Assembly: GCA_039189765.1 (NCBI GenBank)
Contig: JBCCYL010000024.1
Coordinates: 1 to 64,000 of the forward strand
From: Cyanobacteria bacterium P01_F01_bin.150
GTDB lineage: Bacteria > Cyanobacteriota > Cyanobacteriia > CAKZMO01
Reading direction: 5' to 3'
DNA: 64,000 bases
The number at the start of each line of letters is the position of its first letter. The first letter of the stretch is position 1. The position numbers and the translations under genes are program-made. Under the pieces are notes generated by a model, which worked only from the letters and a program-made list of their open reading frames with translations, searched no databases and was not told the origin of the DNA. This document shows, piece after piece, positions 2,073-61,776 of the stretch.

Positions 2073-3644
2073 TTATGGACGGTTGATTTGGATAATTTCC
2101 GTTAGGATACTTTCCAATCCCCCATTCACGTTAATCCGTTCGATCTTATCGGCAATGCGCTCTAGTACCTCCAGCTCCTTTAACCGCAGAGCAACCGGAT
2201 TGCTTTCCATAACCTTGGCGGTGTTGAGCATGCTACGAGTGGCCGAAGTTTCCTCACGGCGACGAATCACGTTGGCCTGGGCCGCCTTCTCCGCTTCCAC
2301 TACCTGACACAGAATGGCCTTCATCTCACCGGGGAGAATAATATCCTTAACCCCGACCGATTCCACCTCAATTCCATACTCGGCAGTCTTCGAGAGAATG
2401 TAATCCGCCACACTAGAGTCGATCGCCCCCTTATCTTCCAAGAGGTCATCCAGCGATCGCGTCCCCACCGCCCCTCGCAGGGCAAACTGGAGTTCCTTAT
2501 ATAGAAAACCCTTGATATCCGCTAAGCCAGCCTTTGCCTTAACTGGATCAACAATGCGGTAGCCAGCGGTCAGATTCAAGCGCAGAGGCACCTTATCCTT
2601 TGAAAGAATTTCCTGACCGGATACATCCAGCGTTTGCAGACGTAGGTCTAGAACTTCAGTTTTGAGCGATCGCCCAAAAAGCCACCACACATGCCAACCT
2701 GGCTCCAGAGTCTCCTGTAGAGCCCCCTCGGAATAGAGCAAGCCCATATGCTGACTGGGTACTTCAGTAATATGCAGATGGGTATGGGCCAACTGGAAGA
2801 CTGCTGGCAACCCAGACACCAGTTCCTTCACCAATCGGGCTGGCAGCTTGGCGTCAGAGCTAAAGTTGATCACTTCCACTTCCACCCCACGCCAGAATAG
2901 CTGACGGCTGGTGGGCTGTAGAACCCCGATCACCTTTCCCTGGTAGCGGGCGATCGCCACTTCTTCTGCCCCCAAGGTCACGGCCTCACAGTACTCAGCT
3001 ACAAACTCAGGGTGCTGTTCCATTAACACGTCAGTGTTGGTAAAGCCAGGGATCGGCTTGGTGCGATCGTACAAGGTCACTCGAACCGTCTGACCATAGG
3101 TCCAGAACCCATATTCACCCGGCCCAAGAGGCCGCACAAAGTTATCTTGAATGTACAGCATGCCGATTTGGAACTCGGATACTCGCACAACTTTCAAGCC
3201 AGCCAAAGCGCTAGCGGCCTGATCCTTTACCTGTTCCACAAATGGGGTGGCCAGCTCTACGCTCTCATCCAGGTCAAAGCAATGGGCTTCCACATCAATA
3301 AATCCCCGCCAAAATAGGCGCAGTTGGTTGGGGGCGATCGCTTGCCACTGCTGTCCCACTCGAACCAGAGCCGCTTGGTTAAAGGCGGTCCGAACTACAA
3401 CAAATTGCTTATTAATCACATCAGCATGGGACTGCAACAATAACTCCACGTTATCGATGGTGGCTTTGGGAGTATTGAGATCAAAAATTTTTACGTTCCA
3501 GTGCCAGCCCATGCGGCGATGGGTGCCCGGCATAAGAACCTCTTGGAAATGACTGCGATAAAACAACATTCCCCGCTCGTTAGGCTTGATGTAAAACGTC
3601 TTGAATAGTTCGAACATAGCTCTTCTTCCTTGCAGCCGTGACAA
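2073..3644 (-). CDS. SPFH/band-7 (stomatin/prohibitin-like, slipin family) domain protein; alternative start at Met ~3617
   Basis: C-terminal half has SPFH hallmarks (..DIILPGEMKAILCQVVEAEKAAQANVIRRREETSATRSMLNTAKVM..NPVALRLKELEVLERIA..), long ORF with consistent codon usage. Confidence 0.75.
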   Translation of the reverse strand: MSRLQGRRAMFELFKTFYIKPNERGMLFYRSHFQEVLMPGTHRRMGWHWNVKIFDLNTPKATIDNVELLLQSHADVINKQFVVVRTAFNQAALVRVGQQWQAIAPNQLRLFWRGFIDVEAHCFDLDESVELATPFVEQVKDQAASALAGLKVVRVSEFQIGMLYIQDNFVRPLGPGEYGFWTYGQTVRVTLYDRTKPIPGFTNTDVLMEQHPEFVAEYCEAVTLGAEEVAIARYQGKVIGVLQPTSRQLFWRGVEVEVINFSSDAKLPARLVKELVSGLPAVFQLAHTHLHITEVPSQHMGLLYSEGALQETLEPGWHVWWLFGRSLKTEVLDLRLQTLDVSGQEILSKDKVPLRLNLTAGYRIVDPVKAKAGLADIKGFLYKELQFALRGAVGTRSLDDLLEDKGAIDSSVADYILSKTAEYGIEVESVGVKDIILPGEMKAILCQVVEAEKAAQANVIRRREETSATRSMLNTAKVMESNPVALRLKELEVLERIADKIERINVNGGLESILTEIIQINRP

Positions 3645-3790
3645 TTTTGGATTTTAGATTTTGGCTTTTGGCTGCGTTCCAGTTTTGAATAGTGACAGTT
3701 TGGGAGTTTGGGCGTTTGGGAGTTTGGGCGTTTTGAATTTTGAATTGGACTTTCTGCCTTCTGCCTTCTGCCTTCTACCTTCTGCCTTTT
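3645..3790. repeat. STRR-like tandem repeat array: (TTTTGGA/TTTTAGA)n, (GGGAGTTTGGGCGTTT)2, (TTTTGAA)2, (TGCCTTC)5; immediately 5' of SPFH start codon
   Basis: Direct reading of tandem units; same motif set recurs at 10345-10527, 11845-11895, 44351-44383 and inside CDS at 53014-53075. Confidence 0.85.
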
Positions 3791-4323
3791 TAAAGCTCTA
3801 CTGACGCTGGCATTTGCCGGGGTCTGTGCGGGCGATCGCCTGTACAGGAATGGATTAAGGCTCCCTTAGGGGCGGGCATGTCTTCTTAAGTTGCTCTGAT
3901 CAGATTGCTCTGACCAAAGTACTGTGGCAAGACATGTAAGATCGCCAAATATATTGTTCCGATTCTCCGTTGGAAAATAGGAAGAGATATACTCGATTCC
4001 AGTATCAAAAGCACTTCGCTAAAAGCGATGCGATGCGACTAGCTAAAAGCTACGCTACGCGATCGCGCTGGCCATTCCCTGGTGCTGTTTTCGCCTTGCT
4101 GTCCTGCATCTAGCGACTGTTTCCAGCGGTCAGATCCGGTTTAGTTTCGGCAAATTCAGCCCAATACCAGCACAGTAGAGCAGAGTGCGGAGTTGAACCG
4201 CATAGGATTTGTTTACCCTATTTACCAGTTGACGCTTGGAGAGCGCTGCTCTTGTAACCCCAGAGCGCGGGAGTACTTGTCCCTAACAAGTCGTCCTTAT
4301 TGCCCACAGGACTTGGGTAGCGT

Positions 4324-4646: not shown

Positions 4647-7600
4647 TCAGAGACCGTCACACAATCTCTTATCTTCGTCTCTAAGCTCAACCGGGTTATG
4701 GGCAACATGAAAGCGAAGCCAATCACAGCCATGAGCTACCATTGCATCCAAGCTAAGTGCCTTTAAATCCCAGAGTTTAATCGTCTTGTCTGAACTGCCG
4801 CTAATGAGGGTCTTGCCATTAGGACTGAAACTCACACTGGTGACCCAATCGTCATGGCCTATGAAGCTGCGGAGTTGCTGACCAGTCGTCACATCCCAGA
4901 GTTTGATTGTTTTATCCGCGCTGCCGCTAACGAGAGTCTTGCCATCGGCACTGAATCTGACACCCATGACCCAATTGTCATGACCTATAAAGTTGCGGAT
5001 TTCCTCTCCGGTCGTCACATCCCAGAGTTTGATCGTTTTGTCTGAACTGCCGCTAACGAGGGTCTTACCATCAGGACTGAAACTCACACTATTGATCCAA
5101 TCGTCATGACCTGTAAAGCTGCGGAGTTCCTTCCCGGTTGCCACATCCCAGAGTTTGATCGTCTTGTCCGTACTGCCGCTAATGAAGGTCTTACCATCGG
5201 CACTGAAACTCACACTATTAACCGACTCGTCATGGCCTATGAAGCCGCGAAGTTCCTCCCCGGTCGTCACATCCCAGAGTTTGATTGTTTTATCCGCGCT
5301 GCCGCTAACGAGAGTCTTGCCATCGGCACTGAAACTCACACTATTAACCGACTCGTCATGGCCTGTGAAGCTGCGGAGTTGCTCCCCAGTCTCCACATCC
5401 CAGAGGTTGATTGTCTTATCCGTACTGCCGCTAATGAGGGTCTTACCATCAGCACTGAAACTCACACTCATGACCCACAGGTCATGACCTGTAAAGCTAC
5501 GGAGTTCCTCCCCGGTCTCCACATCCCAGAGTTTGATCGTCTTGTCTGAACTGCTGCTAACGAAGGACTTGCCATCGGGACTGAAACTCACACTACTGAC
5601 CAACTGGTCATGACCTGTAAAGTTGTGGGGTTGCTCCCCAGTCTCCACATCCCAGAATTTGATTGTCTTGTCTAAACTGCTGCTAACAAGGGACTTGCCA
5701 TCGGGGCTAAAACTCACACTTATGACTGACTCGTTATGACCTGTGAAGCTACGGATTTCCTGCCCAGTCGCCACATCCCAGAGCTTGATCGTTTCGTCCG
5801 CACTGCCGCTAACAAGAGTCTGACCATCGGGGCTGAAACTGACCGTGACTGGCTCGTCATGACCTACAAAGCTGCGGAGTTGCTCCCCGGTCGCCACATC
5901 CCAGAGTTTGATCGTCTTGTCCGAACTTCCGCTAACGAGGGTCTGGCCATCAGGACTGAAACTCACACTAATGACCGCCTCATCATGACCTGTAAAGCTG
6001 CGGAGTTGCTCCCCAGTCGTCACATCCCAGAGTTTGATCATCGTGTCCGCACTGCCGCTAACGAGGGTCTGGCCATCAGAACTGAAACTGACACTACTGA
6101 ACGACTCGTCATGACCTGTGAAGCTGCGAAGTTGCTCCCCAGTGGCCACATCCCAAAGTTTGGCTGTCTTGTCCGCACTGCCGCTAACGAGGGTCTGGCC
6201 ATCAGGACTGAACCTGACACGCAAGACGTGCCTGTCATGGCCTGTGAAGCTGCGGAGTTCTTTCCCGGATTCCACATCCCAGAGTTTGATCGTCTTGTCC
6301 GCACTGCCGCTAACGAGGGTCTGGCCATCGGGGCTAAAACCGACACTCCAGACCCAATTGTCATGGCCTGTAAAGCTGTTGAGTTGCTCCCCGGTCACTA
6401 CATCCCAGAGTTTGACCGTCGTGTCATCACTGCCGCTAACGAGGGTCTGGCCATCGGGACTAAAACTGACACTCCTGACCCAACCGTCATGGCCTGTGAA
6501 GCTACGAACCTTATTACTCTTTAACATAACTTGCTGTAATGCATTCAGCCCCTCTGGTTGAGTAATTTGGTACTTCTGAAGAATAGTGCCTGCTCGAATG
6601 GCTTCCATCCACGCCTCAAAATCTTTACCTTCATTTAAAAGCGTTAATGAACCAAGCCCTGATGATCGCGCCTGGCTCAACTCGGCTTGTTTGATCGCTT
6701 TCTCCGCTCGTTTTAGTTGCTGTACCGCAACACCCCCACCTACCAATGCTAATACCAGCAACGATGCCAACCCCCCAATCACTAGCCGTTGCAGACGGAC
6801 CGATCGCTGCTGATTCATCTCCACCACCAACCGACTTGCTGTCACATACTCCCCCTGCAACGCCGTCGGACTCGGCTGCTTCTCCACTGCTCCCAACAAC
6901 CACTGCTCCGCCTCAGCCAAGTCACTCCCCCGCAGCAGCACATCCTCCCGTCGCCCCTTCTTATCCCACTCGATCGCCTTTACCAACAACTGCGTGTGAA
7001 ACCGCAAATGCTCCGGGTCCGTATCCAACGTCCGCAGCAGCTCCTTAAAATTGGTATCAAACTCCCCCTTATTCGCCGTAAAATCAATCCACTGCACCTT
7101 CGCCAACTCCGGATGCAAGTCCTTCGGATTCACCGGACGATGCAGCACCGTCACCATCCGCTTATTCAGCTTCGCCGCATACTCTACCTCATCAGCACAG
7201 TACGGAGACCTCACCGCCCGAGGCGACAGCACAAACAGAAAAAAATTCGACGTTTCAATTCCCTTGTAAATCTCCTGCTGAAAATCCGCCCCCGACGCAA
7301 TACTTTCCTGATCAAACCAGGTGCGCTTCCGCTGTCGTTGCAACGCATTATTTAACCGCCGGGCAAAATCTGAATCCGCCCGCGAATAGGAAATAAACAC
7401 ATCCGGAGCCACCGCCGCCGTCTGACTTTGACTCGCCTCAATAAAATCCTCCTGAATCTCCGTTGGCCCCTGCCCATCCTTCGCCTTCGCCACCTCCCGC
7501 CACGCCAGCGCATGTTGCAACTCATAGCCCTGAAGCAAAATACAGGGATTGCGCTGCTGCCGCTCCCACTTTAGCGCCTTGGTCAACAGCACCTTATGCT

Positions 7601-8717
7601 CCTTGTGATAGGTCGCATCCTGCTTTAACACCCGCAGCAGATCATCCTCATCCTGGAGATAATCCGCCTCCGTTTCATTGTCCGTCAGGTCAATATATTG
7701 GCGATTGCGCAGGAACACCGGAATCTCAGCCTCCTCCACCTGCCCCGCCAGCATAATAATCAGCCGCTTATTCAGTTGCAGCGATCGCTCCAATTCCATC
7801 TGACAATACTTCGACTTCAGCGAATGGGACGACATCAGCAACAGCACATTATCCGCCTGCTCTACCCCACGGGCGATCGCTCCCTCAAAATCATCCCCAT
7901 ACTCAATATCCGCCCGATAGCTCCAGGTAGTGATGCCGGAGCGCATAAGCGATCGCCTCACCGTCTCCGTCATCGCCCCATCTTCCTCCGCATGGGCCAA
8001 AAACACCTGGGTCATCAAGTTGTCGCCATTCTTGATGCTCTCGGTAATGTACTCATAATGCAAATCCGTCGGCCACAGAGGCGGCTGCTTATCCGCAAAC
8101 CGAACCGCCAGCCACTCCACCGCCTCTTGTTTATCCTCCCCAGTCAACAAGTAGCGGGTCTGCTTCTGATGTCGTTCCCACTCCAGTGCCTGATTCAGCA
8201 ACACCGTATGCTGATGCACATAGCCTTTTTCCAACTCCAGCAGCGCCAATATCTGCTGCAACGACTGCTCAAAATCATTAATCCCTTCCTTACACTGCAC
8301 CCAGTTAATTTTGCCGATTTCAGGATGCATATTTGTGTGGCAGGAATGCAGTCCCTCCGATTCATACTCAGCCCACTGGTCATCCGTGCCATCCAGATTG
8401 CGCTGCTGCCAGATCTCTTGGTCAATGTTCTCTACATGCAGCAGGGGAATAATCCGCTTTTTCCGCTTCAGCGCCAACTCAATTTCCAGTCGGCAATAGG
8501 CCGAATTGGTGGCATGGGGCGCAATGACAAACAGGAAATTATCCGCTTTTTCAATGCCATCATCAATTTGCTTTTGGTAATCTACCCCCAACGGAATATC
8601 TTCAAAATCAAACCAGACGGTGTAGCCCAACTCAACTAAGCGATCGTTCAGGTTCTTGGCAAAGTGCTTACTGTCGGCACGACCATAGGAAATAAAGACA
8701 TCTTGGAGAGGATTCAT
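4647..8717 (-). CDS. Giant multidomain protein: three tandem TIR domains (aa ~5-135, ~236-325, ~438-530), single TM helix (aa ~645-666), 14 WD40 repeats (two predicted 7-bladed propellers)
   Basis: TIR signatures DVFISYGRADS.. and DVFISYSRADSDFARRL.., divergent middle TIR VFLAHAEEDG..; each TIR followed by conserved H..LL..A.EWE...R..LL.G..L..A..WL module; hydrophobic LVIGGLASLLVLALVGGGVAV; 14x GHD..V.SV.FSPDG..L.SGS.D.TIKLWDV repeats. Confidence 0.85.
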   Translation of the reverse strand: MNPLQDVFISYGRADSKHFAKNLNDRLVELGYTVWFDFEDIPLGVDYQKQIDDGIEKADNFLFVIAPHATNSAYCRLEIELALKRKKRIIPLLHVENIDQEIWQQRNLDGTDDQWAEYESEGLHSCHTNMHPEIGKINWVQCKEGINDFEQSLQQILALLELEKGYVHQHTVLLNQALEWERHQKQTRYLLTGEDKQEAVEWLAVRFADKQPPLWPTDLHYEYITESIKNGDNLMTQVFLAHAEEDGAMTETVRRSLMRSGITTWSYRADIEYGDDFEGAIARGVEQADNVLLLMSSHSLKSKYCQMELERSLQLNKRLIIMLAGQVEEAEIPVFLRNRQYIDLTDNETEADYLQDEDDLLRVLKQDATYHKEHKVLLTKALKWERQQRNPCILLQGYELQHALAWREVAKAKDGQGPTEIQEDFIEASQSQTAAVAPDVFISYSRADSDFARRLNNALQRQRKRTWFDQESIASGADFQQEIYKGIETSNFFLFVLSPRAVRSPYCADEVEYAAKLNKRMVTVLHRPVNPKDLHPELAKVQWIDFTANKGEFDTNFKELLRTLDTDPEHLRFHTQLLVKAIEWDKKGRREDVLLRGSDLAEAEQWLLGAVEKQPSPTALQGEYVTASRLVVEMNQQRSVRLQRLVIGGLASLLVLALVGGGVAVQQLKRAEKAIKQAELSQARSSGLGSLTLLNEGKDFEAWMEAIRAGTILQKYQITQPEGLNALQQVMLKSNKVRSFTGHDGWVRSVSFSPDGQTLVSGSDDTTVKLWDVVTGEQLNSFTGHDNWVWSVGFSPDGQTLVSGSADKTIKLWDVESGKELRSFTGHDRHVLRVRFSPDGQTLVSGSADKTAKLWDVATGEQLRSFTGHDESFSSVSFSSDGQTLVSGSADTMIKLWDVTTGEQLRSFTGHDEAVISVSFSPDGQTLVSGSSDKTIKLWDVATGEQLRSFVGHDEPVTVSFSPDGQTLVSGSADETIKLWDVATGQEIRSFTGHNESVISVSFSPDGKSLVSSSLDKTIKFWDVETGEQPHNFTGHDQLVSSVSFSPDGKSFVSSSSDKTIKLWDVETGEELRSFTGHDLWVMSVSFSADGKTLISGSTDKTINLWDVETGEQLRSFTGHDESVNSVSFSADGKTLVSGSADKTIKLWDVTTGEELRGFIGHDESVNSVSFSADGKTFISGSTDKTIKLWDVATGKELRSFTGHDDWINSVSFSPDGKTLVSGSSDKTIKLWDVTTGEEIRNFIGHDNWVMGVRFSADGKTLVSGSADKTIKLWDVTTGQQLRSFIGHDDWVTSVSFSPNGKTLISGSSDKTIKLWDLKALSLDAMVAHGCDWLRFHVAHNPVELRDEDKRLCDGL

Positions 8718-9936: not shown

Positions 9937-10338
9937 CTAGCCCATAAGAATGACTTTATCGAGCACATGAATAATGCCATTATCCGCTTCAAGGTCCGCA
10001 GCGACAACTGAAGCATTTTTTACCTCAAATCCACTGGATGAGCGAATAGGAATCACAGTCCCCTCTACAGAGGTAACCGTGCCCATGTCTTCTAACTCTT
10101 TTTGGGTAAACTTACCAGACACAACATGATAGGTAAGAATGCGAGCGAGCTGAGGAATATTCTGCACAAGCGTTTGAATAGTTCCGGGTGGAAGTTTAGC
10201 AAACGCTTCATCTGTGGGTGCAAAAACGGTAAACGGACCTGGAGACTTTAGAGTATCGACTAAATCAGCCGCTTTTACGGCAGTTACCAGGGTTTCAAAA
10301 TTACCTGCACCAACGGCAATATCAACAATATCGGGCAT
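9937..10338 (-). CDS. cupS: Fasciclin (FAS1) domain protein; by position directly downstream of cupA, candidate CupS subunit of NDH-1MS
   Basis: FAS1 motifs ..[16 protein letters not shown]...L..N...L..IL.YHVV.G.....E.......T..G..I...S.G..V.NA.VV..D.EA.NG.IHV.D.V; operon position after ndhF3-ndhD3-cupA. Confidence 0.6.
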
Positions 10339-10344
10339 GGGAAA

Positions 10345-10527
10345 AACGATTTTGGATTTTAGATTTTGATGGAGGAGTTGGGGAGTTAGGGCGTTTAAGG
10401 AGTTAGGGCGTTTAAGGAGTTAGGGCGTTTAAGGAGTTAGGGCGTTTAGGGAGTTTAAGGAGTTGGGAGTTGGATAGTCTGCCTTCTGCCTTCTGCCTTC
10501 TGCCTTCTGCCTTTTTTCCTTCTGCCT
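10345..10527. repeat. STRR-like tandem repeat array: (TTTTGGA/TTTTAGA)n, (GGAGTTAGGGCGTTTAA)4, (TGCCTTC)6; fills entire cupA-cupS intergenic space
   Basis: Direct reading; 17-mer repeated 4x, heptamer TGCCTTC 6x, ends at cupA stop codon and begins 7 nt after cupS ATG. Confidence 0.9.
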
Positions 10528-11835
10528 TTACCGATAGTCTTGGCTTTGAATATCCCTTAGCCGGGCTTCCGGACGTTTAAACCGATCGAGCTGAGTTTGA
10601 AAAAATTCGCGATTAGCCTGTAAGTGAGCTGGGTTTGGATCATCAAGGGGGTAAAGCAGGGCTTCTCGTAAGGCATGGATAACAGCAGAGGTGACGTTGT
10701 ACATGGAGCGCTGAAAGCTGACCCCCAGCTGAGTGATCATATCGTCTTCTCCTCGGCAATATTGCTTGTAATAGTCCACCAAGTAGGACGGCAGGAAGTG
10801 GAGCATATCTTGCATTAGCAATGTGGGTGGAATTCCTGCCGTCCCGACAGGAAAGAGATCGGCGTAAAGAATACCGTAGTGAAACTCTTCTTGATTGTTA
10901 GGAACCTGCTGGGCTTGAGCGTTATAGGATTTGGTGCCCCGGAAAGGGGATGTGCGGTAAAAAATGGCTTCAACATAGGGCAGCGCAGCTTCATAGAGCC
11001 ACATAAACCCTTTAGATTTTGGAATAATTTCGTAGCATTCGCCATCAATATAAGCGTGATGGTAAATAGGACGCCCGGACACAGCAAAGATGCCGTTCAC
11101 AAGAAAATCCATCGCTTCCGGAACAGTCTTTAAATTGCCCTCATCGTAAAGATCGGACATTTCGAAAAAGACGGCCGCCATCACCTCCCAGAACAAACCC
11201 AAGTTGGAATACTGAGATAGTTGCCGTACTTGTTCAATAAACATGTCAGGAAAAAGCTTATATAGTCCCAACATAACGGGATTGCTCTTGAAGTAGGCGC
11301 GAATGGCACGATCCGCGTTAGCCTTATATTCCTCAGTATCCAAGTAGGCATCAAACTTATTTACGGGAGCATACATGTGACGATGCCAAAGCATTGCCCT
11401 CATACAGGCCTCGGCAAATTCCATGTTGATGCGATCGTGATTCAAATGATGCAGCAGTCGAGGAAGGGTACGATTTGCACCTCCCTTCTTCATAAAGGCA
11501 AGCAGTTCAGGGTGCGCTTTTTCAGTGCCACGCCAAATTCTTAGGTCAGCATTGTCACCAGCATATTTGCTGGGGAGATCGAGATAGTCTTGGGAAATAA
11601 AGTACTTAAAAGCGGGAAGGGGATTGAGAAATACCTGTTCGGCAATGTAAAGCAAATCACGCCAGTAGAAATCCATTGGTACCGCATAGGCCTTATAGAT
11701 ACCAATAATTTGCATCAGGTTTTCAGGGGTATCCGGTAGCATGGACCCGCCTGCTTCCAGACGATGAATCACCTCAGCAAATTCATGATTTGCTGGGGGA
11801 AGGGCCGTAGAAGCAGGTGCGGTGGTAGTGGTCAT
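10528..11835 (-). CDS. cupA: CO2 hydration protein CupA/ChpY of the NDH-1MS high-affinity CO2 uptake complex
   Basis: ~435 aa, ChpX/ChpY family features, positioned immediately downstream of ndhD3 on the same strand as in canonical ndhF3-ndhD3-cupA-cupS operons. Confidence 0.8.
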   Translation of the reverse strand: MTTTTAPASTALPPANHEFAEVIHRLEAGGSMLPDTPENLMQIIGIYKAYAVPMDFYWRDLLYIAEQVFLNPLPAFKYFISQDYLDLPSKYAGDNADLRIWRGTEKAHPELLAFMKKGGANRTLPRLLHHLNHDRINMEFAEACMRAMLWHRHMYAPVNKFDAYLDTEEYKANADRAIRAYFKSNPVMLGLYKLFPDMFIEQVRQLSQYSNLGLFWEVMAAVFFEMSDLYDEGNLKTVPEAMDFLVNGIFAVSGRPIYHHAYIDGECYEIIPKSKGFMWLYEAALPYVEAIFYRTSPFRGTKSYNAQAQQVPNNQEEFHYGILYADLFPVGTAGIPPTLLMQDMLHFLPSYLVDYYKQYCRGEDDMITQLGVSFQRSMYNVTSAVIHALREALLYPLDDPNPAHLQANREFFQTQLDRFKRPEARLRDIQSQDYR

Positions 11836-11844
11836 AGTTCAGCA

Positions 11845-11895
11845 AGGGAGTTTGGGAGTTAGAGCGTTTGGGAGTTAAAGCGTTTGGGAGTTAGT
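11845..11895. repeat. STRR-like tandem repeats (GGGAGTTWGAGCGTTT)n in ndhD3-cupA spacer
   Basis: gggagtttgggagttagagcgtttgggagttaaagcgtttgggagttag. Confidence 0.85.
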
Positions 11896-21362: not shown

Positions 21363-23633
21363 ATGACTGCGGATCAGTCTTTACCTCCAAGCAATTCCCA
21401 TATGTTTTTCGCTCGTCGTCATCGAGAACGACCCACTGGCTCAAGCGGCCCTTTGGATTATGTTGAGTCTTGGACGATGCAGACACATAGCATTTCTCAG
21501 CATCCACCACAACACTATCTATTGGAACAGCATTTATTAGATGCTCTACGTCAAAAAATTGCAGAGGCTGGTCCAATACAGTCTCTATTGACAGAAACCG
21601 TCGCTGACTTACAAAAGAACTTACAGGTAGATCGAGTCCTTATATTGCCAATGGGCGATCGCTTTGCCACACCTCTGTTTACCTTGGGGGATATTGAAGC
21701 CCGTGTTGAGTCGGTTTTGTCCGTTTCAGATTATCGCCAGCACCATGCTGAGCATGGTGAGCTGCACAGTGATCAATCTCCCATTTGGATTGTGACAAAT
21801 GCCGATCGCAAAGCCTATGCCAATGGGCAGATTGATGTTGTTTGTGATATTTCCAGCACTACCCTACTGCTGCCTCAACGGACATGGCTAGAAGCTTTGG
21901 GGGTCAAGTCTTACATTAACCTGCCGATTTTGCAGCATCAACAATTGTGGGGAATGCTGATGCTGCAATGTTGTGAGGAGTATCGCGATTGGTCCTCTTT
22001 AGAGGTTGCAACATTGAAGCGTGTGGTTCAACAAATTGCCATTGCGATTGAACAAGCTGAATTACGCCAAACCTGTAAGCACATGGGGCAAAGTCCGCAA
22101 ATGGAGACCAATGGGCAGCAGTCCGCCTCAAATCGGTCCTCAGATCAACAAGAGCCGCAATCCAGTGCGTTGATGAATGAAGGCATGGCTCCTTTGAAGC
22201 AATCCTTGAAGTTTGCAGAATTAGTGCTAGAGGTGACCGAACGAATTCGCGACAGCTTAGATGAATCTCAAATTCTCCAAACCGCAACTCAAGAATTAGC
22301 TGAAGCTCTTAATGTTGAACGGTGCAAGATTGAGCTTTATGATCCTTCTCTGTCCACAGCAACAGTGGCCTATGAGCATGCATTAAATCCGCCCAATTGT
22401 ATTGGCATGACCCGAACAATGGCGGACTTTTTAGATCTCTATAAGCCTCTGTTCCAACATCAGCCAGTGCAGTTCGTCGTGCCACAGTCATCAAATTTAC
22501 GCTTAGTGAATATGACCCGACTTGCCTGCCCCATCTTTGATGATCAGGGTTTATTAGGAAATCTGTGGCTGTTTCGTCCTCGCAATGAGATGTTCAATCG
22601 CTGGGAAATACGAATTATTCAGCAAATTGCCAATGAATGTGCGATCGCCATCCGTCAAGCTCGTTTATACGAAGCATCTCAGAAACAAGTTCGAGAGTTA
22701 GAGCGTTTGAGCCAGCTTAAGGATGATTTCCTGAAAACGATTTCCCATGAACTCCGCACCCCTCTTAGCAGCATTATGCTTGGAGTCCAAACCCTAGAGC
22801 GTATCTTAAATCAAACCTTTGATGAGGAAAAATCACCGTCAACCGAGCTATCCGCAACAGCGTTATTGCAGGCAGAGCAGGCAGAGCAGGCAGAGCAGGC
22901 AGATGCATCGATAATAAAAACATCAGAAGAAATCGAGGTGTCAAGCACCAATGTATCCCAAGCAAAATCGTTAACGAAAGAGCATCTCAAAAAAATAGAT
23001 CGGCCAACAATCCAACGCTTATTTCAAACAGTGCGTATGGAATGCCATCGCGAAAATAAGCTAATTGAGGACTTGTTAACGTTCTGTTATCTGGAGGCGG
23101 GAAAGGAATCATCCATGACTACGTCCATTGATCTGAATCATTGGATTATGGACATCATCAAACGTTTTGAAATTCGCATCCAAAATCAGCAGCAACAGCT
23201 CACTGTTGACTTGTGCAACTGCCTACCTCTACTTACCACTGAGCTAGCTTATTTAGAGCGAATTGTATCTGAACTGCTTAACAATGCTTGTAAATACACT
23301 CCTCCCTACGAAAACATTACTATCTGCACGACCCTTAAATCGCTAATAGAGGAAGAAGCATTTGACAGCATTGACGATGAATACATTGTACTAATGGTAA
23401 AAAATTCAGGAGTTGAAATTCCGCAAGAAGAGCAGGATAGAATTTTTGATAAGTTCTATCGCATTCCATCTAGCGATCCTTGGCAATATGGGGGTACAGG
23501 GTTAGGACTTGCCCTAGTGAAGAAATTAACAAAATGTTTGGGAGCCTCCATTCAAGTCAGCAGTATGAACGGGCAGACTAGTTTTATGGTGCTATTTCCA
23601 GCCGATAGCTCTTCACATGCATCGTCTGAATAA
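21363..23633 (+). CDS. Sensor histidine kinase with two GAF domains, HisKA and HATPase_c; contains (AEQ)n tandem-repeat insertion
   Basis: H-box ISHELRTPLSSIMLGVQTLE, ATP-lid ..GGTGLGLALVKKLTKCLG..; tandem 9-nt repeat gcaggcagag x3.5 at 22870-22905 encodes QAEQAEQAEQA. Confidence 0.8.
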   Translation: MTADQSLPPSNSHMFFARRHRERPTGSSGPLDYVESWTMQTHSISQHPPQHYLLEQHLLDALRQKIAEAGPIQSLLTETVADLQKNLQVDRVLILPMGDRFATPLFTLGDIEARVESVLSVSDYRQHHAEHGELHSDQSPIWIVTNADRKAYANGQIDVVCDISSTTLLLPQRTWLEALGVKSYINLPILQHQQLWGMLMLQCCEEYRDWSSLEVATLKRVVQQIAIAIEQAELRQTCKHMGQSPQMETNGQQSASNRSSDQQEPQSSALMNEGMAPLKQSLKFAELVLEVTERIRDSLDESQILQTATQELAEALNVERCKIELYDPSLSTATVAYEHALNPPNCIGMTRTMADFLDLYKPLFQHQPVQFVVPQSSNLRLVNMTRLACPIFDDQGLLGNLWLFRPRNEMFNRWEIRIIQQIANECAIAIRQARLYEASQKQVRELERLSQLKDDFLKTISHELRTPLSSIMLGVQTLERILNQTFDEEKSPSTELSATALLQAEQAEQAEQADASIIKTSEEIEVSSTNVSQAKSLTKEHLKKIDRPTIQRLFQTVRMECHRENKLIEDLLTFCYLEAGKESSMTTSIDLNHWIMDIIKRFEIRIQNQQQQLTVDLCNCLPLLTTELAYLERIVSELLNNACKYTPPYENITICTTLKSLIEEEAFDSIDDEYIVLMVKNSGVEIPQEEQDRIFDKFYRIPSSDPWQYGGTGLGLALVKKLTKCLGASIQVSSMNGQTSFMVLFPADSSSHASSE

Positions 23634-32724: not shown

Positions 32725-33564
32725 TTAGCCAAGCGCCTTAATACCGCGTAGCAGCATGTAGCTTGACAACCCTAAGAGTAATAAGCGAAAGAGAGTGGTA
32801 ATAGTCTTATCGGAAAGTTTGGGAAGAAGACGGGTGCCAAATTGAGCACCAATAATAGCGCCTCCCCCCAAACAGAGGCCAGGAATCCATAACACATGAC
32901 CACTGATGGACTGACGAATAAGCGCAGAAGACGCGATCGCCACAATTGCGCCTAAACTGGTGCGTACCGCGATTTTAATCGGCTCATTTAGAGCCAGCAT
33001 TTGCAATGGCACCATCACCGCCCCACCACCAACACCAAATAATCCCGATAGCATTCCCGCCAAAACGCCAATCCCCATCGTCGGTACAAATGGATAGCGC
33101 CTCTCCCGCTCAGTCCCACTTACAGCTTCTCCTTGCTCCCCTGCTCCCCCGCTCCCCTGCTCCCCTGCTCCCTTATGCCCCTGCTCCCTTACCAGCGATC
33201 GCTTCAACCCCATTAGATAAATAGTGGTCAACGCCAAGACAGCAAAGCCAATGGACAGAAAAGCATCAGGAATGCTGGCCCCCAACCACGATCCTACTTG
33301 AGCCGACATTAGACCAAAGCCGCCCAAAATTAAGGCCACTTTCCAATTTAAGGTCCCCGTTTGTAAATTGCGAATACTGCCAGAAAGACCGCTGAGTAAG
33401 ACCCCAATGAGGCTGGTGGCGGCAGCTTGAAGAGTAGTAGCGCCAGCTAAGGTTAGGGCTGGAACATTGAGTAAGCCACCACCAATGCCTAAAATACCAG
33501 CTAAGGTTCCAGTAAATAAGCCAAATCCAAATAGAAGAAACCAGCCTAACGGGGTATCAATCAT
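32725..33564 (-). CDS. TSUP (TauE/SafE) family anion exporter, with in-frame Gly/Glu-rich repeat insertion
   Basis: Two 4-TM halves with conserved ..GIGGGLL..P.L../..GVGGGAVMVPL.. motifs; central loop GAGEQGSGGAGEQGEA encoded by tandem ctcccctgctccc repeats (33111-33195). Confidence 0.75.
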   Translation of the reverse strand: MIDTPLGWFLLFGFGLFTGTLAGILGIGGGLLNVPALTLAGATTLQAAATSLIGVLLSGLSGSIRNLQTGTLNWKVALILGGFGLMSAQVGSWLGASIPDAFLSIGFAVLALTTIYLMGLKRSLVREQGHKGAGEQGSGGAGEQGEAVSGTERERRYPFVPTMGIGVLAGMLSGLFGVGGGAVMVPLQMLALNEPIKIAVRTSLGAIVAIASSALIRQSISGHVLWIPGLCLGGGAIIGAQFGTRLLPKLSDKTITTLFRLLLLGLSSYMLLRGIKALG

Positions 33565-43090: not shown

Positions 43091-44338
43091 CTAGGCACTT
43101 TGAGATAAGGGTTGGGCGATAGCATTATGAACCGAACGTAATGGAGCGATGGAGTGACCCAGCACCTGGGCATAGACCTTTACCCAGTTGTCCTGTTCTA
43201 CCTCAGGGGAAAGCTTTTGTGAGACATTGATTTGTGCCTGGCGGCCAAGGGACTGGCGCAATTCAGGAGAATCGGCAAGCTGGCGGATCGCCTGGGCAAG
43301 CTCCACTCTGGAACTGGGTGGAACAACTAATGAATCCTCTCCATTGGTCAAAATTTCGCCAATGGCGTCAACATTGGTGCCAATAATCGGACAGCCTGCC
43401 ATCATGGCTTCTAGCATGGCGTTGGGACAGCCATCATGAATGGATGGAATCGAGAATATATCCAGATGGGGCAAAAAGGTCAGGGCGTCTTCACGGGGCA
43501 TCATCCCAGTGACATGAACCCGATGCCTAAAAGAGTGATGCGTCAGGAGATCATCCCAATAGGCCTTTTCCTTATCGACAAAATCCCCAATCAAAACCAG
43601 CGTTAGGGGAATACTGTCTTGGAGCAGAGCACAGGCATCTAGCAAAAATTCAATCCCTTTCTTATCCCGAAATCTCCCCAGGGAACCAATTACTAGCCCT
43701 GTATCAGCATTCTGCCACAGGGATTTAATCAGCCCTGGTGTAGGCATTTCTTCAAAGTCAACAGCAGCAATCGAATTCCAAAACGCTGAAGACCGGGGCC
43801 TAAGCGTAGGAACTAGCACCGTTGCTCGTCGCTGCAGATCTCGACTGACACAGGTCACCCAATCAGATTGCTCAAGAGTCCAGGTAATCTGGCCGTGATA
43901 TTTGGGATTAAAAACATGTTTATGCAGGTCATTACCGCGAATGCTGTTGAGAACGGGGATACCATATTCCTTAGCCAGCAACGTGGCTAGAAACCCCGTC
44001 TCATTGAGAAAAAAGGCGTGAAAGGCATCAAAGTCATAGCGGAGGTGGAGCGATCGCACCTGAGCATACACTTCGGTCATATAGTCCTGAACGGCCCAGT
44101 TTTCCGCCCGCACTGCGCAGTGAATACGATGCACCAATACCCCATCATCATTATTAGTGGTGTAGCCTGTGCGAATGCTGGGATTTGGCGTATTGTGAAA
44201 CTTAGCGCTGAAGACGGTTACATGTACTTCGTAGCCAGACCTCTGAAGCATATGGGCGATACGATAAACAGACGTGCCAACCCCACCAATATCGGGGGGA
44301 TATTCGAGGGTAGTCATGCAAATACGAGCAGCAGTCAT
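43091..44338 (-). CDS. Glycosyltransferase family 4 (GT-B, retaining)
   Basis: ..E.PPDIGGVGTSVYR.. N-terminus and C-terminal ..PS..DGCPNAMLEAMMAGCPIIGT.. EX7E-like region. Confidence 0.75.
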   Translation of the reverse strand: MTAARICMTTLEYPPDIGGVGTSVYRIAHMLQRSGYEVHVTVFSAKFHNTPNPSIRTGYTTNNDDGVLVHRIHCAVRAENWAVQDYMTEVYAQVRSLHLRYDFDAFHAFFLNETGFLATLLAKEYGIPVLNSIRGNDLHKHVFNPKYHGQITWTLEQSDWVTCVSRDLQRRATVLVPTLRPRSSAFWNSIAAVDFEEMPTPGLIKSLWQNADTGLVIGSLGRFRDKKGIEFLLDACALLQDSIPLTLVLIGDFVDKEKAYWDDLLTHHSFRHRVHVTGMMPREDALTFLPHLDIFSIPSIHDGCPNAMLEAMMAGCPIIGTNVDAIGEILTNGEDSLVVPPSSRVELAQAIRQLADSPELRQSLGRQAQINVSQKLSPEVEQDNWVKVYAQVLGHSIAPLRSVHNAIAQPLSQSA

Positions 44339-44350
44339 GGAAACTCCTTT

Positions 44351-44383
44351 GATTTTGGATTTTGGATTTTGGATTTTGGATTG
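44351..44383. repeat. Heptamer tandem repeat (TTTTGGA)x4.5 immediately 5' of GT4 start codon
   Basis: gattttggattttggattttggattttggattg; on mRNA strand reads (UCCAAAA)n just upstream of AAGGAG SD and AUG. Confidence 0.9.
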
Positions 44384-44492
44384 TCTGCAAGGAAGTCCGG
44401 TCCTCTCCTCTTGGCAAAGGCGAGTTAGAGGGGGTGCTCCAAAAGTTGGACTATTTCAGCCAGGCATTACAAGAGGTGGGTCTTCCAAACCA

Positions 44493-52041: not shown

Positions 52042-53472
52042 CTAAACTTTTTTGAATCGTTCTTTTGCCGCTTGAAACGCTTCAGTCATCGCCTGTTGAA
52101 TGCGATCGGGATCGGGCTTTTTTCCTCCCATTACATCCCCAAAGTACACACAAGCGCCTTCACCCAACGCCCAAGTGTAGGCTGCGGCCCACGATGCTGC
52201 AACTACGCTGCCAAAGCCAGGAATAAACTTAATCAGTTCTCGACCGATGGCCTGGGCTAGAAATCCACCGGCGATCGCGCTTACAATTCCCCCCGCCTGG
52301 GACGTCGAAATTTTCTGACCGTAGAGCTTACCCAACAGTCCCACCATCGACACCTGGAGCGCCGTCAAAACGGGCATAGTTGCAAAGGGCAGCGGCACTG
52401 CCGCCAAGGTGGCCGCCATTGTTGCAAAAGCCAACATATAACGACGTCCCACTTCCCGATATACGGACCCCAACTGCTCATTAGCCTGCTTACTTGCATC
52501 AGCATCCAATAGTTGACGAATCGTTCGCGCCTCCGCCTCTGGTAACAGCTCCGCCAGCGTATCCCGCAGCGCTTCCAATCCATAAAATACAGGACTATAC
52601 CCATCCTCCTCCAGAGTAAAATCAATCAATATTGCCCGATCCCAAAGGCCATCAAATGCCTCTTTCACAGATTCAAAGGCACGATTGACGTCTTCCATCA
52701 TTGGAGGGTAGTCGGGATGATTTTCAACGTCACTGGCATACAGCTCATGGACACAAGTAACCACCAGAAGACAGGGAATAGCTGGAGAACCCATCGACTC
52801 TGCGCCCTGGAAATATCGTACCTGCTTCACAATGTCCCTTAACGACGCAACGGCAAAATCATTAATCTTCACCGTCAAAATCAGCACCCTCGCCTGCTGC
52901 TTCTCTTTCACCCCACCCTCTAAATTTACATCAGCAAGACCAGAGTTATTGTCCGTCTGAACAACGGTGTTGGGTTTCCTACCGTCAACCCAACCTACGC
53001 CCTCATTCTTCCTCCCCAACGCCCCAACTCCCCAACTCCCCAACTCCTCAACTCCCCAACCCTCTACCAACTCCTCCACCCAACTTTCCGTATCCTGAGC
53101 TACATCCCCCAACCCAACTGTGTCCGTAAAAATAAGCAGAGGAAGCTCTGCGGAAGGATAGGCATACCGCTCCGTATTCTGAGTATGGGGCCGAAACCCC
53201 TGACCAACGATGTCCGCAGATACGCCAGTCAGCCCTCGAACGATAGAGCTTTTACCAGCCTGGGGTTTACCAATTAAGATGGCTTCTGTAGTGGGTAACT
53301 GTCCTCGTAGGCTCTCTAAAATTTCAGCAATCTGTTTATCGTCCACATCTAGCCACCGTGAGGATTTTCGTGCTAGCCAGGCAGATAGTTCTTTAGGAAA
53401 AGATGCAGGATTGAGCTTTTCAAGATTTAGGTGCTTTAGGTATTGGGACGTTTGCTGCCAGAAGTCGGTCAT
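52042..53472 (-). CDS. P-loop GTPase with C-terminal DUF697 membrane-associated domain (YcjF/YfjD-like), carrying in-frame STRR-like repeat insertion
   Basis: G1 GKPQAGKSSIVRGLTG, G3 ..FTDTVGLGD..; C-terminal hydrophobic DUF697-like region; (CCCCAACT)n repeat at 53014-53075 encodes WGVEELGSWGVGALG. Confidence 0.65.
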   Translation of the reverse strand: MTDFWQQTSQYLKHLNLEKLNPASFPKELSAWLARKSSRWLDVDDKQIAEILESLRGQLPTTEAILIGKPQAGKSSIVRGLTGVSADIVGQGFRPHTQNTERYAYPSAELPLLIFTDTVGLGDVAQDTESWVEELVEGWGVEELGSWGVGALGRKNEGVGWVDGRKPNTVVQTDNNSGLADVNLEGGVKEKQQARVLILTVKINDFAVASLRDIVKQVRYFQGAESMGSPAIPCLLVVTCVHELYASDVENHPDYPPMMEDVNRAFESVKEAFDGLWDRAILIDFTLEEDGYSPVFYGLEALRDTLAELLPEAEARTIRQLLDADASKQANEQLGSVYREVGRRYMLAFATMAATLAAVPLPFATMPVLTALQVSMVGLLGKLYGQKISTSQAGGIVSAIAGGFLAQAIGRELIKFIPGFGSVVAASWAAAYTWALGEGACVYFGDVMGGKKPDPDRIQQAMTEAFQAAKERFKKV

Positions 53473-61000: not shown

Positions 61001-61776
61001 ATACCTGCACCATCTCCTTCCCCAAATAACGATTCAACATTATCTAGAACAATTAGACAGCGATGATTTCGCAGGCAGGTCATCAAGGTTCGAATCTGAG
61101 CATCGATACTTTGAGTGGCACCATTATCAACCAGATCAACCATTGGCTGCTCAACAAAAAAGTTGAGTATACTCGCTAATATCTCCTGAATAGACGGGGC
61201 ATTTTTCAGACCACGCCATATTAAATAGTCAAAACGATCAGCGACTTGGTGCGCCAACTTTGCACTCAGCGTTGTTTTTCCCATGCCGCCGATACCACAG
61301 ATCGCCACAAGCCGACATCGGTCCTCAACCAGCCAGCTTTCCAGGGTTGTTAATACTTGTTCACGTCCAAAGAATACAGAACTATCGATCGCTTCCCCCC
61401 AATCTTGAGTCGCTTTGGCTGTAGCCTGATCTGTATCGCGTTGAGACGTATCTTTTTCAAGATTTTTTGGGGAAGCTTGGAGATTTTCTACTTCTCTTTC
61501 TTTGGAAGATCCTTCTTTGGAAGATAATCGTGAACTTGCTTTTGCCGGTAGCTCACGCTCTAAATCGGCAATATCTTCCCATTCCAGATTGAGCGTTGCG
61601 CAAAGTTCAGTAAATGTCGCAAAGTCAACAGGTTTGCCTCCTAAGAATTTCTTAACAGTTGCTAGGGAATAGCCTGCTCTTTCCGCTAAAGCACGTTGGG
61701 TTGGAAATCCGTTGCGTTGAATAGCAATGCGGAGGGTGTTCAAGCAGACTTGCTGGGCTTTGAGCGAACGAGGCAT
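58075..61776 (-). CDS. STAND NTPase: N-terminal XRE-type HTH - NB-ARC/AAA (Apaf-1-like) - ~13 WD40 repeats
   Basis: HTH ..FPTQRALAERAGYSLATVKKFLGGKPV..; P-loop ..VAICGIGGMGKTTLSAKLAHQ.., Walker B ..CLIVLDNVE..; C-terminal GH..V.SVAFSPDG..LASGS.D.T.RLW repeats. Confidence 0.85.
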   Translation of the reverse strand: MPRSLKAQQVCLNTLRIAIQRNGFPTQRALAERAGYSLATVKKFLGGKPVDFATFTELCATLNLEWEDIADLERELPAKASSRLSSKEGSSKEREVENLQASPKNLEKDTSQRDTDQATAKATQDWGEAIDSSVFFGREQVLTTLESWLVEDRCRLVAICGIGGMGKTTLSAKLAHQVADRFDYLIWRGLKNAPSIQEILASILNFFVEQPMVDLVDNGATQSIDAQIRTLMTCLRNHRCLIVLDNVESLFGEGDGAGIYLPGYEDYGQLLKTLSETDHSSSILLTSRELPKEISIQAIDTSPIRSFQLSGLSITAGQALIKATDQVNRSFSGTEAEWNQLIDVYGGNPLALKIIAAAVRDYFDGSLSAFLELAQQDLFIFGDIRQLLARQMKRLTTLEQDIMYWLAIRREPVVWRSLQTDMVETVPLNKLLQAIDSLERRSLLEKSGSRITQQAVIMDYFTGELIEQVCEEIRSQTPKRLRSHGLVKANSSDYIYQAQIRLILGPIRSQLQTEWSSINALASTLTDCLESVQSLPTRDRSYLGGNVLTLLHHLGVDLKGYDFSNLTIRQTSLRGLTLHNVNFSGSDLTHSLFNQPFGSIRAITFRTEDNLLATGDTNGEIWLWRSHLTPASSPGATGDIGSHIATFEGHQNWVCSVAFSPDGILLASASADRTVRLWDVETGECLQTFDGHQNWVMSVAFSPDGTVLASGSADRTVRLWDIETGECRQILGGHGHGIWSVAFAPNGDYLASGSADCTIRLWSSLTGECLQTLAEHKHGVWSVAFSPDGSQLASGSADQTIRLWEMPSGQCLHTLEGHSNWIWMVTFSPDGTLLASGSADQTVRLWDVKTRQCLRVLTGHSNWVWSVAFSPDGDYLTSGSEDRTLRLWDRGSGQCLKALQGSGNWVWTLAYSPDGRQLASGQGDRSLHLWNMAAENTSETLKEVQEVIWTVAFSPNGQQLASGNEDGGVHLWRLNKQPNNSKKRTHRRFSGHTKSVWSVAFNPATTLLASGSADQSIKLWTLRTGNCKQTLTGHRHWVSSVAFHPEKNLLASGSYDRTIKLWDLETYDCVATWKGHSSGIWCIAFSPQGDFLVSSSMDQTIRRWDTCTGACEQIFKGHENWVISVAVSPDGQWIASGSADRTVRLWNMQTGKRVYVLNGHGNTVWAVDFSPDGKTLASGSDDKTIRLWSVETGKCLKIIKNREPYDGMNIADIEGLTESEISTLEQLGAVQEL

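Follow-up and report, generated by a model that had tools for sequence, protein, structure and literature searches.

Short tandemly repeated repetitive (STRR) sequences, comprising the units STRR1 CCCCA(A/G)T, STRR2 TT(G/T)GTCA and STRR3 CAACAGT, were originally described in heterocyst-forming cyanobacteria, reportedly by Mazel et al. in 1990. Here we describe tandem arrays that precede four genes within a 64,000-nt stretch (the window; positions 1 to 64,000 of contig JBCCYL010000024.1) of Cyanobacteria bacterium P01_F01_bin.150, an unclassified marine metagenome-assembled genome (MAG); judged by CupA, SPFH and GT4, its closest named relatives are labelled Cyanothece, Leptolyngbyaceae, Acaryochloris and Synechococcales. 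The window is cyanobacterial, with a GC content of 48% and the HIP1 octamer GCGATCGC occurring 73 times over its 64 kb, and its CupA and GT4 match proteins of this MAG at 100% identity. The STRR-like character suggested for the arrays by a first-pass annotation is upheld, as they share with STRR sequences the tandem heptamers, the dispersed and mostly intergenic copies, the several unit families and the side-by-side blocks of different units. They differ from STRR1-3 in the units themselves, which are TCCAAAA/TCTAAAA, GAAGGCA and AAACGCCC/AAACTCCC with AAACNCCC doublets of 16-17 nt, and possibly in the host, whose closest named kin lie outside the heterocyst-forming genera.

Positional rules have been described for other heptamers. 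The GGGGA(C/T)T repeats of Nostoc PCC 7120 and the GGGAATC repeats of Xanthomonas are enriched between co-directional open reading frames (ORFs), most being transcribed, with a G-rich strand that is antisense in the 50 bp ahead of an ORF and sense in the 50 bp past a stop codon, which it sometimes overlaps; copy number is variable and some copies lie within ORFs (Rehm et al. 2015, PMC4692102). The polarity is identical at the window sites, in relatives and in wider tallies, but the units are different and just one of the four window sites has a canonical G-quadruplex motif. The TAACTGA direct repeats of marine Beggiatoaceae, Cyanobacteria and Bacteroidetes lie forward and a few nt upstream of start codons, with Shine-Dalgarno sequences rare behind the arrays, unrelated downstream genes and 7-nt insertions or deletions between close strains; the units cross phyla, and in Microcystis their orientation is mixed (MacGregor 2015, PMC4679880). 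Arrays of the window and its relatives are likewise forward and 0-26 nt from the ATG, cupA and cupS similarly lack a Shine-Dalgarno sequence, and a Prevotella array (L093, below) provides a cross-phylum echo, although the unit sequence differs. In Nostoc PCC 7120, (TTCAAAA)3-4 stands upstream of recF and 20 other genes, within 100 nt of a start codon or -10 box, and its strand tracks gene direction (TTTTGAA at 14 leftward genes, TTCAAAA at 7 rightward ones); a translation role is speculated, and the reporter data do not isolate the effect of the repeat (Pradhan et al., bioRxiv 10.1101/2022.06.06.494920). TTCAAAA is one base from TCCAAAA and itself occurs at one window site, but in another organism, and the window arrays also lie inside an operon.

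The arrays also invite comparison with translational enhancers. Unstructured A/U- or C/A-rich enhancers, or ribosome standby sites, bind ribosomal protein S1, and cyanobacterial rbcL mRNA uses initiation that is independent of Shine-Dalgarno pairing and dependent on ribosomal protein S1. The window offers a G-poor, predicted single-stranded tract just 5' of the initiation region and two genes, cupA and cupS, with no Shine-Dalgarno sequence, a likeness that is one of functional analogy drawn from sequence and predicted single-strandedness. A literature search for the exact repeat units found nothing relevant. The repeat class, its positional bias and speculation on a regulatory role are already in the literature, while novelty lies in the units, in the lineage hosting them, in a position rule that one unit follows in either orientation, and in the Prevotella look-alike.

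Tandem Repeats Finder and direct reading identify TTTTGGA/TTTTAGA, GGAGTTNGGGCGTTT and TGCCTTC motifs (plus-strand reading) at four sites, S1-S4, with periods of 7, 8, 16 and 17 and 2.2 to 7.1 copies. All four arrays are present where the first-pass annotation had placed them, its identification of the downstream genes is upheld by Pfam, and the start codons of these genes match the N-termini of homologues. The genes and array sites are:

2073-3617, minus strand: Band_7/SPFH gene (Pfam)
9937-10338, minus strand: fasciclin-domain protein in the cupS position (Pfam)
10528-11835, minus strand: ChpXY/CupA (Pfam)
43091-44338, minus strand: GT4 glycosyltransferase (Pfam)
3644-3790: S1 as a whole, upstream of the SPFH gene (minus strand); plus-strand order ATTTTGG x4 (3644-3671), GGGAGTTTGGGCGTTT x2.2 (3698-3733), TTTTGAA x2.3 (3731-3746), TTCTGCC x5.3 (3752-3788)
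3644-3671, minus strand: S1 start-proximal block, mRNA GCCAAAA-GCCAAAA-UCUAAAA-UCCAAAA, 26 nt upstream of the SPFH ATG (3617)
3697-3746, minus strand: S1 middle blocks, mRNA (AAACGCCCAAACUCCC) x2.2 and (UUCAAAA) x2
3752-3790, minus strand: S1 distal block, mRNA (GAAGGCA) x5, directly after a conserved noncoding block ending CAGTAGAGCTT
10348-10528: S2 as a whole; GATTTTG x3, GGAGTTAGGGCGTTTAA x4.4 with GGAGTTNN units on either side, TCTGCCT x7.1
10348-10368, minus strand: S2 start-proximal block, UCAAAA-UCUAAAA-UCCAAAA, 9 nt upstream of the cupS (fasciclin) ATG at 10338
10374-10473, minus strand: S2 middle block, (AAACGCCCUAACUCCUU) x4.4 plus AACUCCNN units; absent from the closest relative, L094
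10478-10528, minus strand: S2 stop-proximal block, (GAAGGCA) x7, starting at the cupA stop codon (TAA, 10528-10530)
11846-11894, minus strand: S3, GTTTGGGAGTTAGAGC x2.8, mRNA (AACUCCCAAACGCUYU) x2.8, 10 nt upstream of the cupA ATG (11835)
44351-44382, minus strand: S4, GATTTTG x4.6 (perfect), mRNA (UCCAAAA) x4.6, 12 nt upstream of the GT4 ATG (44338)

These motifs occur far above the chance level set by 100 dinucleotide-preserving shuffles per two-unit pattern: TTTTRGATTTTRGA (at most one mismatch) has 9 matches against 0.16 expected, TGCCTTCTGCCTTC has 7 against 0.05 and GGAGTTNRRGCGTTT has 10 against 0.06. Within the 64 kb, TCYAAAA is found at three loci, the 16/17-mer at three and GAAGGCA at two. 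The single orientation relative to the gene that the first-pass annotation had proposed is observed at each site, the mRNA strand being the A/C-rich strand at four out of four. A start-proximal position, 9-26 nt from the ATG, is confined to the UCYAAAA block and the C-rich 16/17-mer block; the start-proximal blocks hold 0 to 2 G. The GAAGGCA block occupies the opposite end of the spacer, 130-140 nt ahead of the start codon. The earlier proposal that mRNA repeats adjoin the ribosome-binding site is thus borne out for (UCCAAAA)n and not for (GAAGGCA)n. Read 5' to 3', the S1 mRNA would run (GAAGGCA)5, (UUCAAAA)2, (AAACGCCCAAACUCCC)2, GCCAAAA-GCCAAAA-UCUAAAA-UCCAAAA, 26 nt that include AAGGAAG, and the AUG. 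The corresponding order at S2 is the cupA UAA, (GAAGGCA)7, AACUCCNN/(AAACGCCCUAACUCCUU)4.4, UCAAAA-UCUAAAA-UCCAAAA, 9 nt and the AUG, with the cupA stop codon running straight into the GAAGGCA block (TAA-AGGCAGAAGG). Block order and an exact 20-mer, ATTTTGGATTTTAGATTTTG, are common to S1 and S2, and their flanks are unrelated. At S4 the array abuts the 5' side of the Shine-Dalgarno sequence AAAGGAG, with UCAAAGGAGUUUCC between array and GT4 AUG; no Shine-Dalgarno sequence is present behind the arrays of cupS (S2) and cupA (S3).

S2 fills the entire spacer from the cupA stop to the cupS start and S3 lies in the ndhD3-cupA spacer, both belonging to an ndhF3-ndhD3-cupA-cupS cluster recognised from the ORFs of the window and from relatives with identical, Pfam-labelled gene order. 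S4 lies between two co-directional glycosyltransferase genes. The first-pass annotation described the arrays as 5' leaders; S2, S3 and S4 are intercistronic spacers and not leaders behind a promoter. The ndhF3-ndhD3-cupA-cupS cluster is a co-transcribed operon in model cyanobacteria. Given this, and a distance of just 9-26 nt from array to ATG, the arrays very probably lie within transcripts.

Relatives, designated here by locus, often retain the array at orthologous positions. The closest found is L094, a European Nucleotide Archive (ENA) metagenome contig (ERZ26696514) with a CupA 91% identical to that of the window. Its cupA-cupS spacer reads UAA-(GAAGGCA)3-(AUCCAAA)6-GAGG-AUG in 72 nt, compared with 189 nt in the window, and does not contain the 17-mer block. 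In its ndhD3-cupA spacer, (AAAUCCA)4(AACUCCA)2 touches the AUG of cupA, a position occupied in the window by the 16-mer; the AACUCCA units found there suggest that the C-rich 8/16-mer arose from a UCCAAAA-type heptamer. L094 has an extra (AAGGCAG)3.6, 4 nt past the stop of a gene with no co-directional downstream neighbour. In L229 (Cyanothece sp. SIO2G6; CupA 83%), (AUCCAAA)5 ends 2 nt from the cupS AUG and there is no array before cupA. In L095 (CupA 82%) the array is flipped: UUUUGAA-UUUUAGA-UUUUGGA is sense, 5 nt past the cupA stop and 50 nt from cupS, and the ndhF3-ndhD3 spacer combines (UUUUGAG)3.3 near the stop with a C-rich array at the start.

The SPFH and GT4 sites behave similarly. 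The SPFH orthologues of L220 and L221 (90%) keep UCUAAAA-UCCAAAA beside the ribosome-binding site and are either without the GAAGGCA block or bear another insert, of 180 nt; in the L222 orthologue (79%) the arrays are inverted and built of other units. The GT4 orthologues of L223 and L224 (83%) retain an interrupted UCCAAAA array, in L223 before the Shine-Dalgarno sequence. L225 (GT4 71%; a genome of 60% GC) has (GAAGGCA)16 after the upstream stop and CCAAAAU-CCAAAAU-CUAAAAU-CCAAAAU immediately before AAGGAG-AUG at the GT4 start, as well as a flipped (GAUUUUG)4.6 array 8 nt past another stop. No start-proximal array was found for the GT4 orthologues of L227 (72%) and L228 (67%). Relatives with 71-91% protein identity therefore often hold a UCCAAAA array 0-26 nt ahead of orthologous start codons, while copy number, unit and middle blocks vary and some have no array or a flipped one. 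Judged from these comparisons, the arrays are old enough for shared orthologous positions, yet unstable in copy number, unit and presence. Several short-read contigs end at or in arrays, namely L001 (Logan SRR22824305, inside (GAAGGCA)n), L220, L221 and L224, and the sole match in an exact-protein look-up of CupA is a 2.2-kb Logan contig broken at repeats.

The orientation rule extends across the lineage and beyond. In a tally of the window and its relatives that uses gene calls from tools, ten out of ten arrays whose A/C-rich strand is sense lie 0-26 nt from a start codon, and three out of three with TTTTGRR as sense (L095 twice, L225 808-839) lie 5-16 nt past a stop, with 50 nt or more to the next start. 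Across cyanobacteria-like loci with co-directional ORFs the sense strand has more C than G in all 11 start-proximal arrays and more G than C in all 7 stop-proximal ones, a tally in which some loci are orthologous to each other and which includes L174, later placed inside an ORF. Among 27 heptamer-rich loci of mixed origin (about 125 arrays), the sense strand of stop-proximal arrays is G>C in 52 and C>G in 19, and that of start-proximal arrays G>C in 18 and C>G in 36 (Fisher p = 1.1e-5; 0.011 once the searched-for units are removed); by locus, 18 follow the rule, 3 are contrary and 6 are tied. As the locus searches were blind to strand, they were unable to create an orientation bias. Metagenome contigs with (GAAGGCA)3 number more than 120, span 35-68% GC and are mostly non-cyanobacterial, and in 95 metagenome arrays of (GAAGGCA)n the unit is sense within 60 nt past a stop in 47, versus 18 in the mirror (antisense) situation. 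A positional and orientation bias relative to genes, which the first-pass annotation had anticipated, is thus seen within the lineage as well as across the broader set of loci.

The 16/17-mer is far more restricted. A scan for (GGAGTTWGGGCGTTTN{1,2}GGAGTT) gave one match in 185,579 species-representative genomes, a set that does not include P01_F01_bin.150, suggesting that this unit is essentially private. The match is L093 2813-2951, in a Prevotella sp. MAG (JAFYJN010000067.1), where a co-directional spacer runs from the stop through an A-rich tract, (AGGGGCA)3.3, (AAACUCCUAUACUCCC)6.4 and 30 nt to the AUG. With a sense-strand unit of (AAACTCCTATACTCCC)6.4, a nearly identical unit and a matching architecture are present in another phylum.

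The spacers lack RNA structure. Sense-strand minimum free energies (MFE) are -0.09 to -0.20 kcal/nt, compared with -0.24 +/- 0.05 for random 150-mers of the window; against their own shuffles the sense spacers have z of 0.5 to 1.8 and are not more structured, and the antisense strands fold like average sequence. Rfam has no match to the array spacers at gathering score or at E<=1. With no Rfam match and folding z >= 0, a structured cis-regulatory RNA (riboswitch, attenuator or thermometer) is ruled out. Pairing of (GAAGGCA)n with the C-rich block, a further candidate, is seen in MFE structures, yet shuffled sequences pair just as well, and it was rejected. The initiation region itself is predicted to be open: in the interval -20 to +12 around the AUG the unpaired probability is greater with the native array than with the array flipped at nine of ten sites, and at seven of ten it ranks in the top 7% or better when the array is compared with random-genomic replacements.

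We interpret the motif set common to unrelated genes as a genome-wide repeat family subject to an orientation filter rather than a specific riboregulator. The explanation that we consider probable is that they are lineage-specific STRR-type repeats remodelled by slippage, with their orientation filtered by translation initiation. Simple-sequence DNA would lengthen, shorten and switch unit through replication slippage in intergenic and intercistronic spacers, and a unit family common to a clade of marine cyanobacteria would occupy those spacers that tolerate repeats. Transcribed within mRNAs, as they appear to be, the arrays may be tolerated in only one orientation near gene ends. Beside a start codon the mRNA strand would be G-poor and A/C-rich, (UCCAAAA)n or (AAACNCCC)n, and predicted to be unable to fold; such a G-free tract could not pair with the initiation region, leaving the ribosome-binding region single-stranded. 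It would also be free of AUG, GUG and UUG and of GGA- or GAGG-like sequence, both of which (UUUUGGA)n would bring. The tract may in addition provide an unstructured landing site for the ribosome or ribosomal protein S1, an enhancer effect that would suit cupA and cupS, which have no Shine-Dalgarno sequence. Beside a preceding stop the sense strand would instead be the G-rich or purine-rich one, (GAAGGCA)n in the window and (UUUUGGA)n in relatives. The first-pass annotation had raised a preferred context for STRR-like repeats as one of two possibilities, and this comes nearer the data and fits the positional rule published for other heptamers (PMC4692102).

We infer that the start-proximal half of the orientation rule reflects selection at translation initiation, and several considerations weigh against this. 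The accessibility measure in part counts the array itself, and for S2-S4, with at most 9-13 nt between array and AUG, the result is partly built in. The wider tallies use crude heuristic ORF calls on loci from unidentified organisms; the L174 spacer was dropped as an example, since an ATGA start/stop overlap behind GGAGG puts its arrays inside an ORF. An argument from translation initiation leaves the G-rich preference after stops unexplained. The retention of the unit before orthologous genes down to 71% identity, and from 48% to 60% GC, could mean a positive function. Finally, the polarity can be restated with no reference to gene direction, in that the G-rich strand begins at the ORF end lying 5' of it. 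In the 27 heptamer-rich loci, 48 of the 66 arrays lying right of a gene have a G>C top strand (48:18) and 40 of the 59 lying left have a C>G one (40:19), which hints at a cause at the DNA level.

Since the rule can be phrased in this way, a DNA-level cause is a serious rival, although on balance we think it unlikely. Arrays would nucleate at ORF ends and expand directionally, for example through strand-asymmetric slippage or repair, with no role in expression. The independence of the rule from the direction of the flanking gene, likewise remarked on by Rehm et al. (PMC4692102), is consistent with such a mutational polarity, as is the very fast turnover of the arrays, at which short-read assemblies break. 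However, no known mechanism ties slippage polarity to ORF boundaries, and initiation regions are markedly more open in silico in the native than in the flipped orientation. A bias between replication strands fails as the source and is ruled out, G-rich and C-rich blocks occurring on one strand within the single spacers of S1 and S2.

The spacer arrays could alternatively form a two-part, convergently used translation module, in which a purine-rich block extending from the upstream stop and an A/C-rich, G-free block extending to the next start would hand ribosomes from cistron to cistron, or recruit them via ribosomal protein S1, independently of a Shine-Dalgarno sequence. Prevotella belongs to a phylum that initiates translation without Shine-Dalgarno pairing. 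The array of the Prevotella MAG, with its nearly identical AAACTCC(C) unit and the same architecture, and the (UCCAAAA)n kept before orthologous genes in relatives of 48-60% GC are consistent with such a module, which we nevertheless rate as distinctly unlikely. If it were true, STRR-type repeats would be functional initiation elements and not junk.

A dedicated post-transcriptional regulon appears improbable. Here (UCCAAAA)n and the C-rich 16-mer would bind a specific protein or small RNA and thereby co-regulate NDH-1/CupA CO2 uptake, SPFH and glycosyltransferases. Such a role would account for a UCCAAAA-type unit 0-26 nt before orthologous starts in several relatives, including the genome of 60% GC, and for the recurrence of the UCUAAAA-UCCAAAA pair at non-orthologous sites, and similar proposals exist for TAACTGA (MacGregor) and for the Nostoc recF/recO heptamers (Pradhan et al.). 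Patchiness among relatives and the lack of relation between the downstream genes speak against it: arrays are missing or flipped in the similarly distant L095, L227, L228 and the ndhD3-cupA spacer of L229, and the genes of the window are functionally unlinked. Furthermore, copy number and unit vary freely, with the 16-mer replacing UCCAAAA-type units in S3, array units also occur after stop codons and inside ORFs, and no candidate binding factor was identified. The common post-transcriptional control element proposed by the first-pass annotation is therefore not borne out: the spacers have no RNA structure (z >= 0) and no Rfam family, the turnover of the arrays is fast, and array units also lie inside ORFs and after stops with no downstream gene.

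We consider a transcription element at the DNA level very unlikely. The array might supply a promoter -10 box, as UCUAAAAU includes TAAAAT, a -10-like hexamer 17-36 nt before the ATG. It is present in most but not all arrays, occurring at S1, S2, L094, L220, L221, L223 and L225 but not in S4, L229 or the L094 cupA array. Consensus scans of the spacers found no promoter, -35 element or terminator, a single promoter-like match upstream of S1 being at chance level, and S2 and S3 lie within the cluster known to be co-transcribed in model cyanobacteria. Alternatively, a template-strand G-quadruplex might modulate transcription, given that Nostoc and Xanthomonas heptamers form quadruplexes in vitro (PMC4692102) and that S1 has a canonical G3N5 x4 motif at 3702-3728 on the plus strand. 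A search for at least four tracts of at least three G with loops of at most 7 nt found no such motif at S2, S3, S4 or in the UCCAAAA arrays of relatives. With the canonical motif at one of four sites, quadruplex formation is not the common property here and was ruled out as such. A mobile composite or miniature inverted-repeat element that copies (GAAGGCA)n-(16-mer)n-(UCYAAAA)n whole between spacers is scarcely credible and was ruled out, since despite the identical block order and exact 20-mer of S1 and S2 these lack common ends, their flanks are unrelated with no terminal inverted repeats or target duplications, blocks come and go singly in orthologues, and the 16/17-mer is in no other species-representative genome except for the one Prevotella array.

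Our results add new unit families from an uncultured marine cyanobacterial lineage, evidence that a strict rule of position (A/C-rich sense at starts, G-rich at stops) governs one unit in each of its two orientations, and evidence that arrays persist before orthologous genes despite changing copy number and unit. If the orientation rule is a constraint of translation initiation, as in the reading we prefer, the arrays would be cheap, evolvable expression tuners and would supply a design rule for building synthetic cyanobacterial operons; should the rule have another origin, they would be tolerated simple-sequence DNA. On a practical level, the repeats fragment short-read assemblies at these spacers.

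Related arrays also occur inside ORFs of the window:

53012-53085, minus strand: octamer array GGAGUUGG/GGCGUUGG (sense), in the GTPase/DUF697 ORF 52042-53472, in the linker between two Pfam domains
33134-33188, minus strand: octamer array GGGGAGCA (sense), in the middle of the TauE transporter ORF 32725-33564

Both belong to the octamer family of S1-S4, and in both the G-rich strand is sense, opposite to S1-S4, with canonical G-quadruplex motifs on the coding strand. At 53012-53085, (GGAGTTGG)n codes for a low-complexity linker of the GTPase/DUF697 protein. A perfect (GCAGGCAGA)4 nonamer array at 22868-22903 lies in ORF 21363-23633 (plus strand), the unit length keeping the frame. In L174 (10088-10313; JAESFU010000028.1), five successive heptamer blocks, GCAGAAG, TCAAAAC, CACCTCT, AAACTCA and CACTCCC, are probably translated as an N-terminal low-complexity extension before a hydrophobic segment.

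In metagenome contigs L100-L179, (GAAGGCA)n often forms inverted pairs of the type (GAAGGCA)n...(TGCCTTC)n. Dense heptamer arrays of many units are present in the IMG/VR 'viral' contigs L005, L014, L019, L067, L089 and L091, often in inverted pairs spaced by 60-150 nt, the G/T-rich arm leading, which would make long hairpins.

A conserved noncoding block separates a tRNA gene from SPFH in the window (3795-4270, minus strand), L220 (1440-1835), L221 (175-600) and L222 (4275-4715). It starts with a tRNA-like sequence, a T-arm GCGGTTCRAnTCCGY followed by an acceptor-like CTGCTCTA, continues with a long hairpin showing compensatory changes in 8 of 49 predicted pairs, and closes with a second conserved stretch that ends CAGTAGAGCTT immediately before the S1 arrays. 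The upstream tRNA varies by genome (Asn, Lys, Met+Lys). The block has no Rfam or ARAGORN call and could represent either a small RNA that has escaped annotation or a structured 5' untranslated region.

Repeat-bearing spacers also host other small repeats. A palindromic dispersed repeat, CCCAGCCAGAGnCTGGGAACC, is found at 1777-1797 in the window, in L094 (9936-9956), L223 (1432-1452) and L229 (about 6325-6347, reverse), and directly adjoins the UCCAAAA array in three relatives. A second, GC-rich palindrome (CCCCTTGGCAAGGGGGAG-like) occurs in the S4 spacer (44407-44424), L221 and L227. Elsewhere in the window, 126-nt tandem repeats at 4767-6503 and 59237-59841 (13.8 copies, and about two copies three times) sit in the large minus-strand ORFs 4647-8717 and 58075-61776, presumably encoding repeated protein domains.

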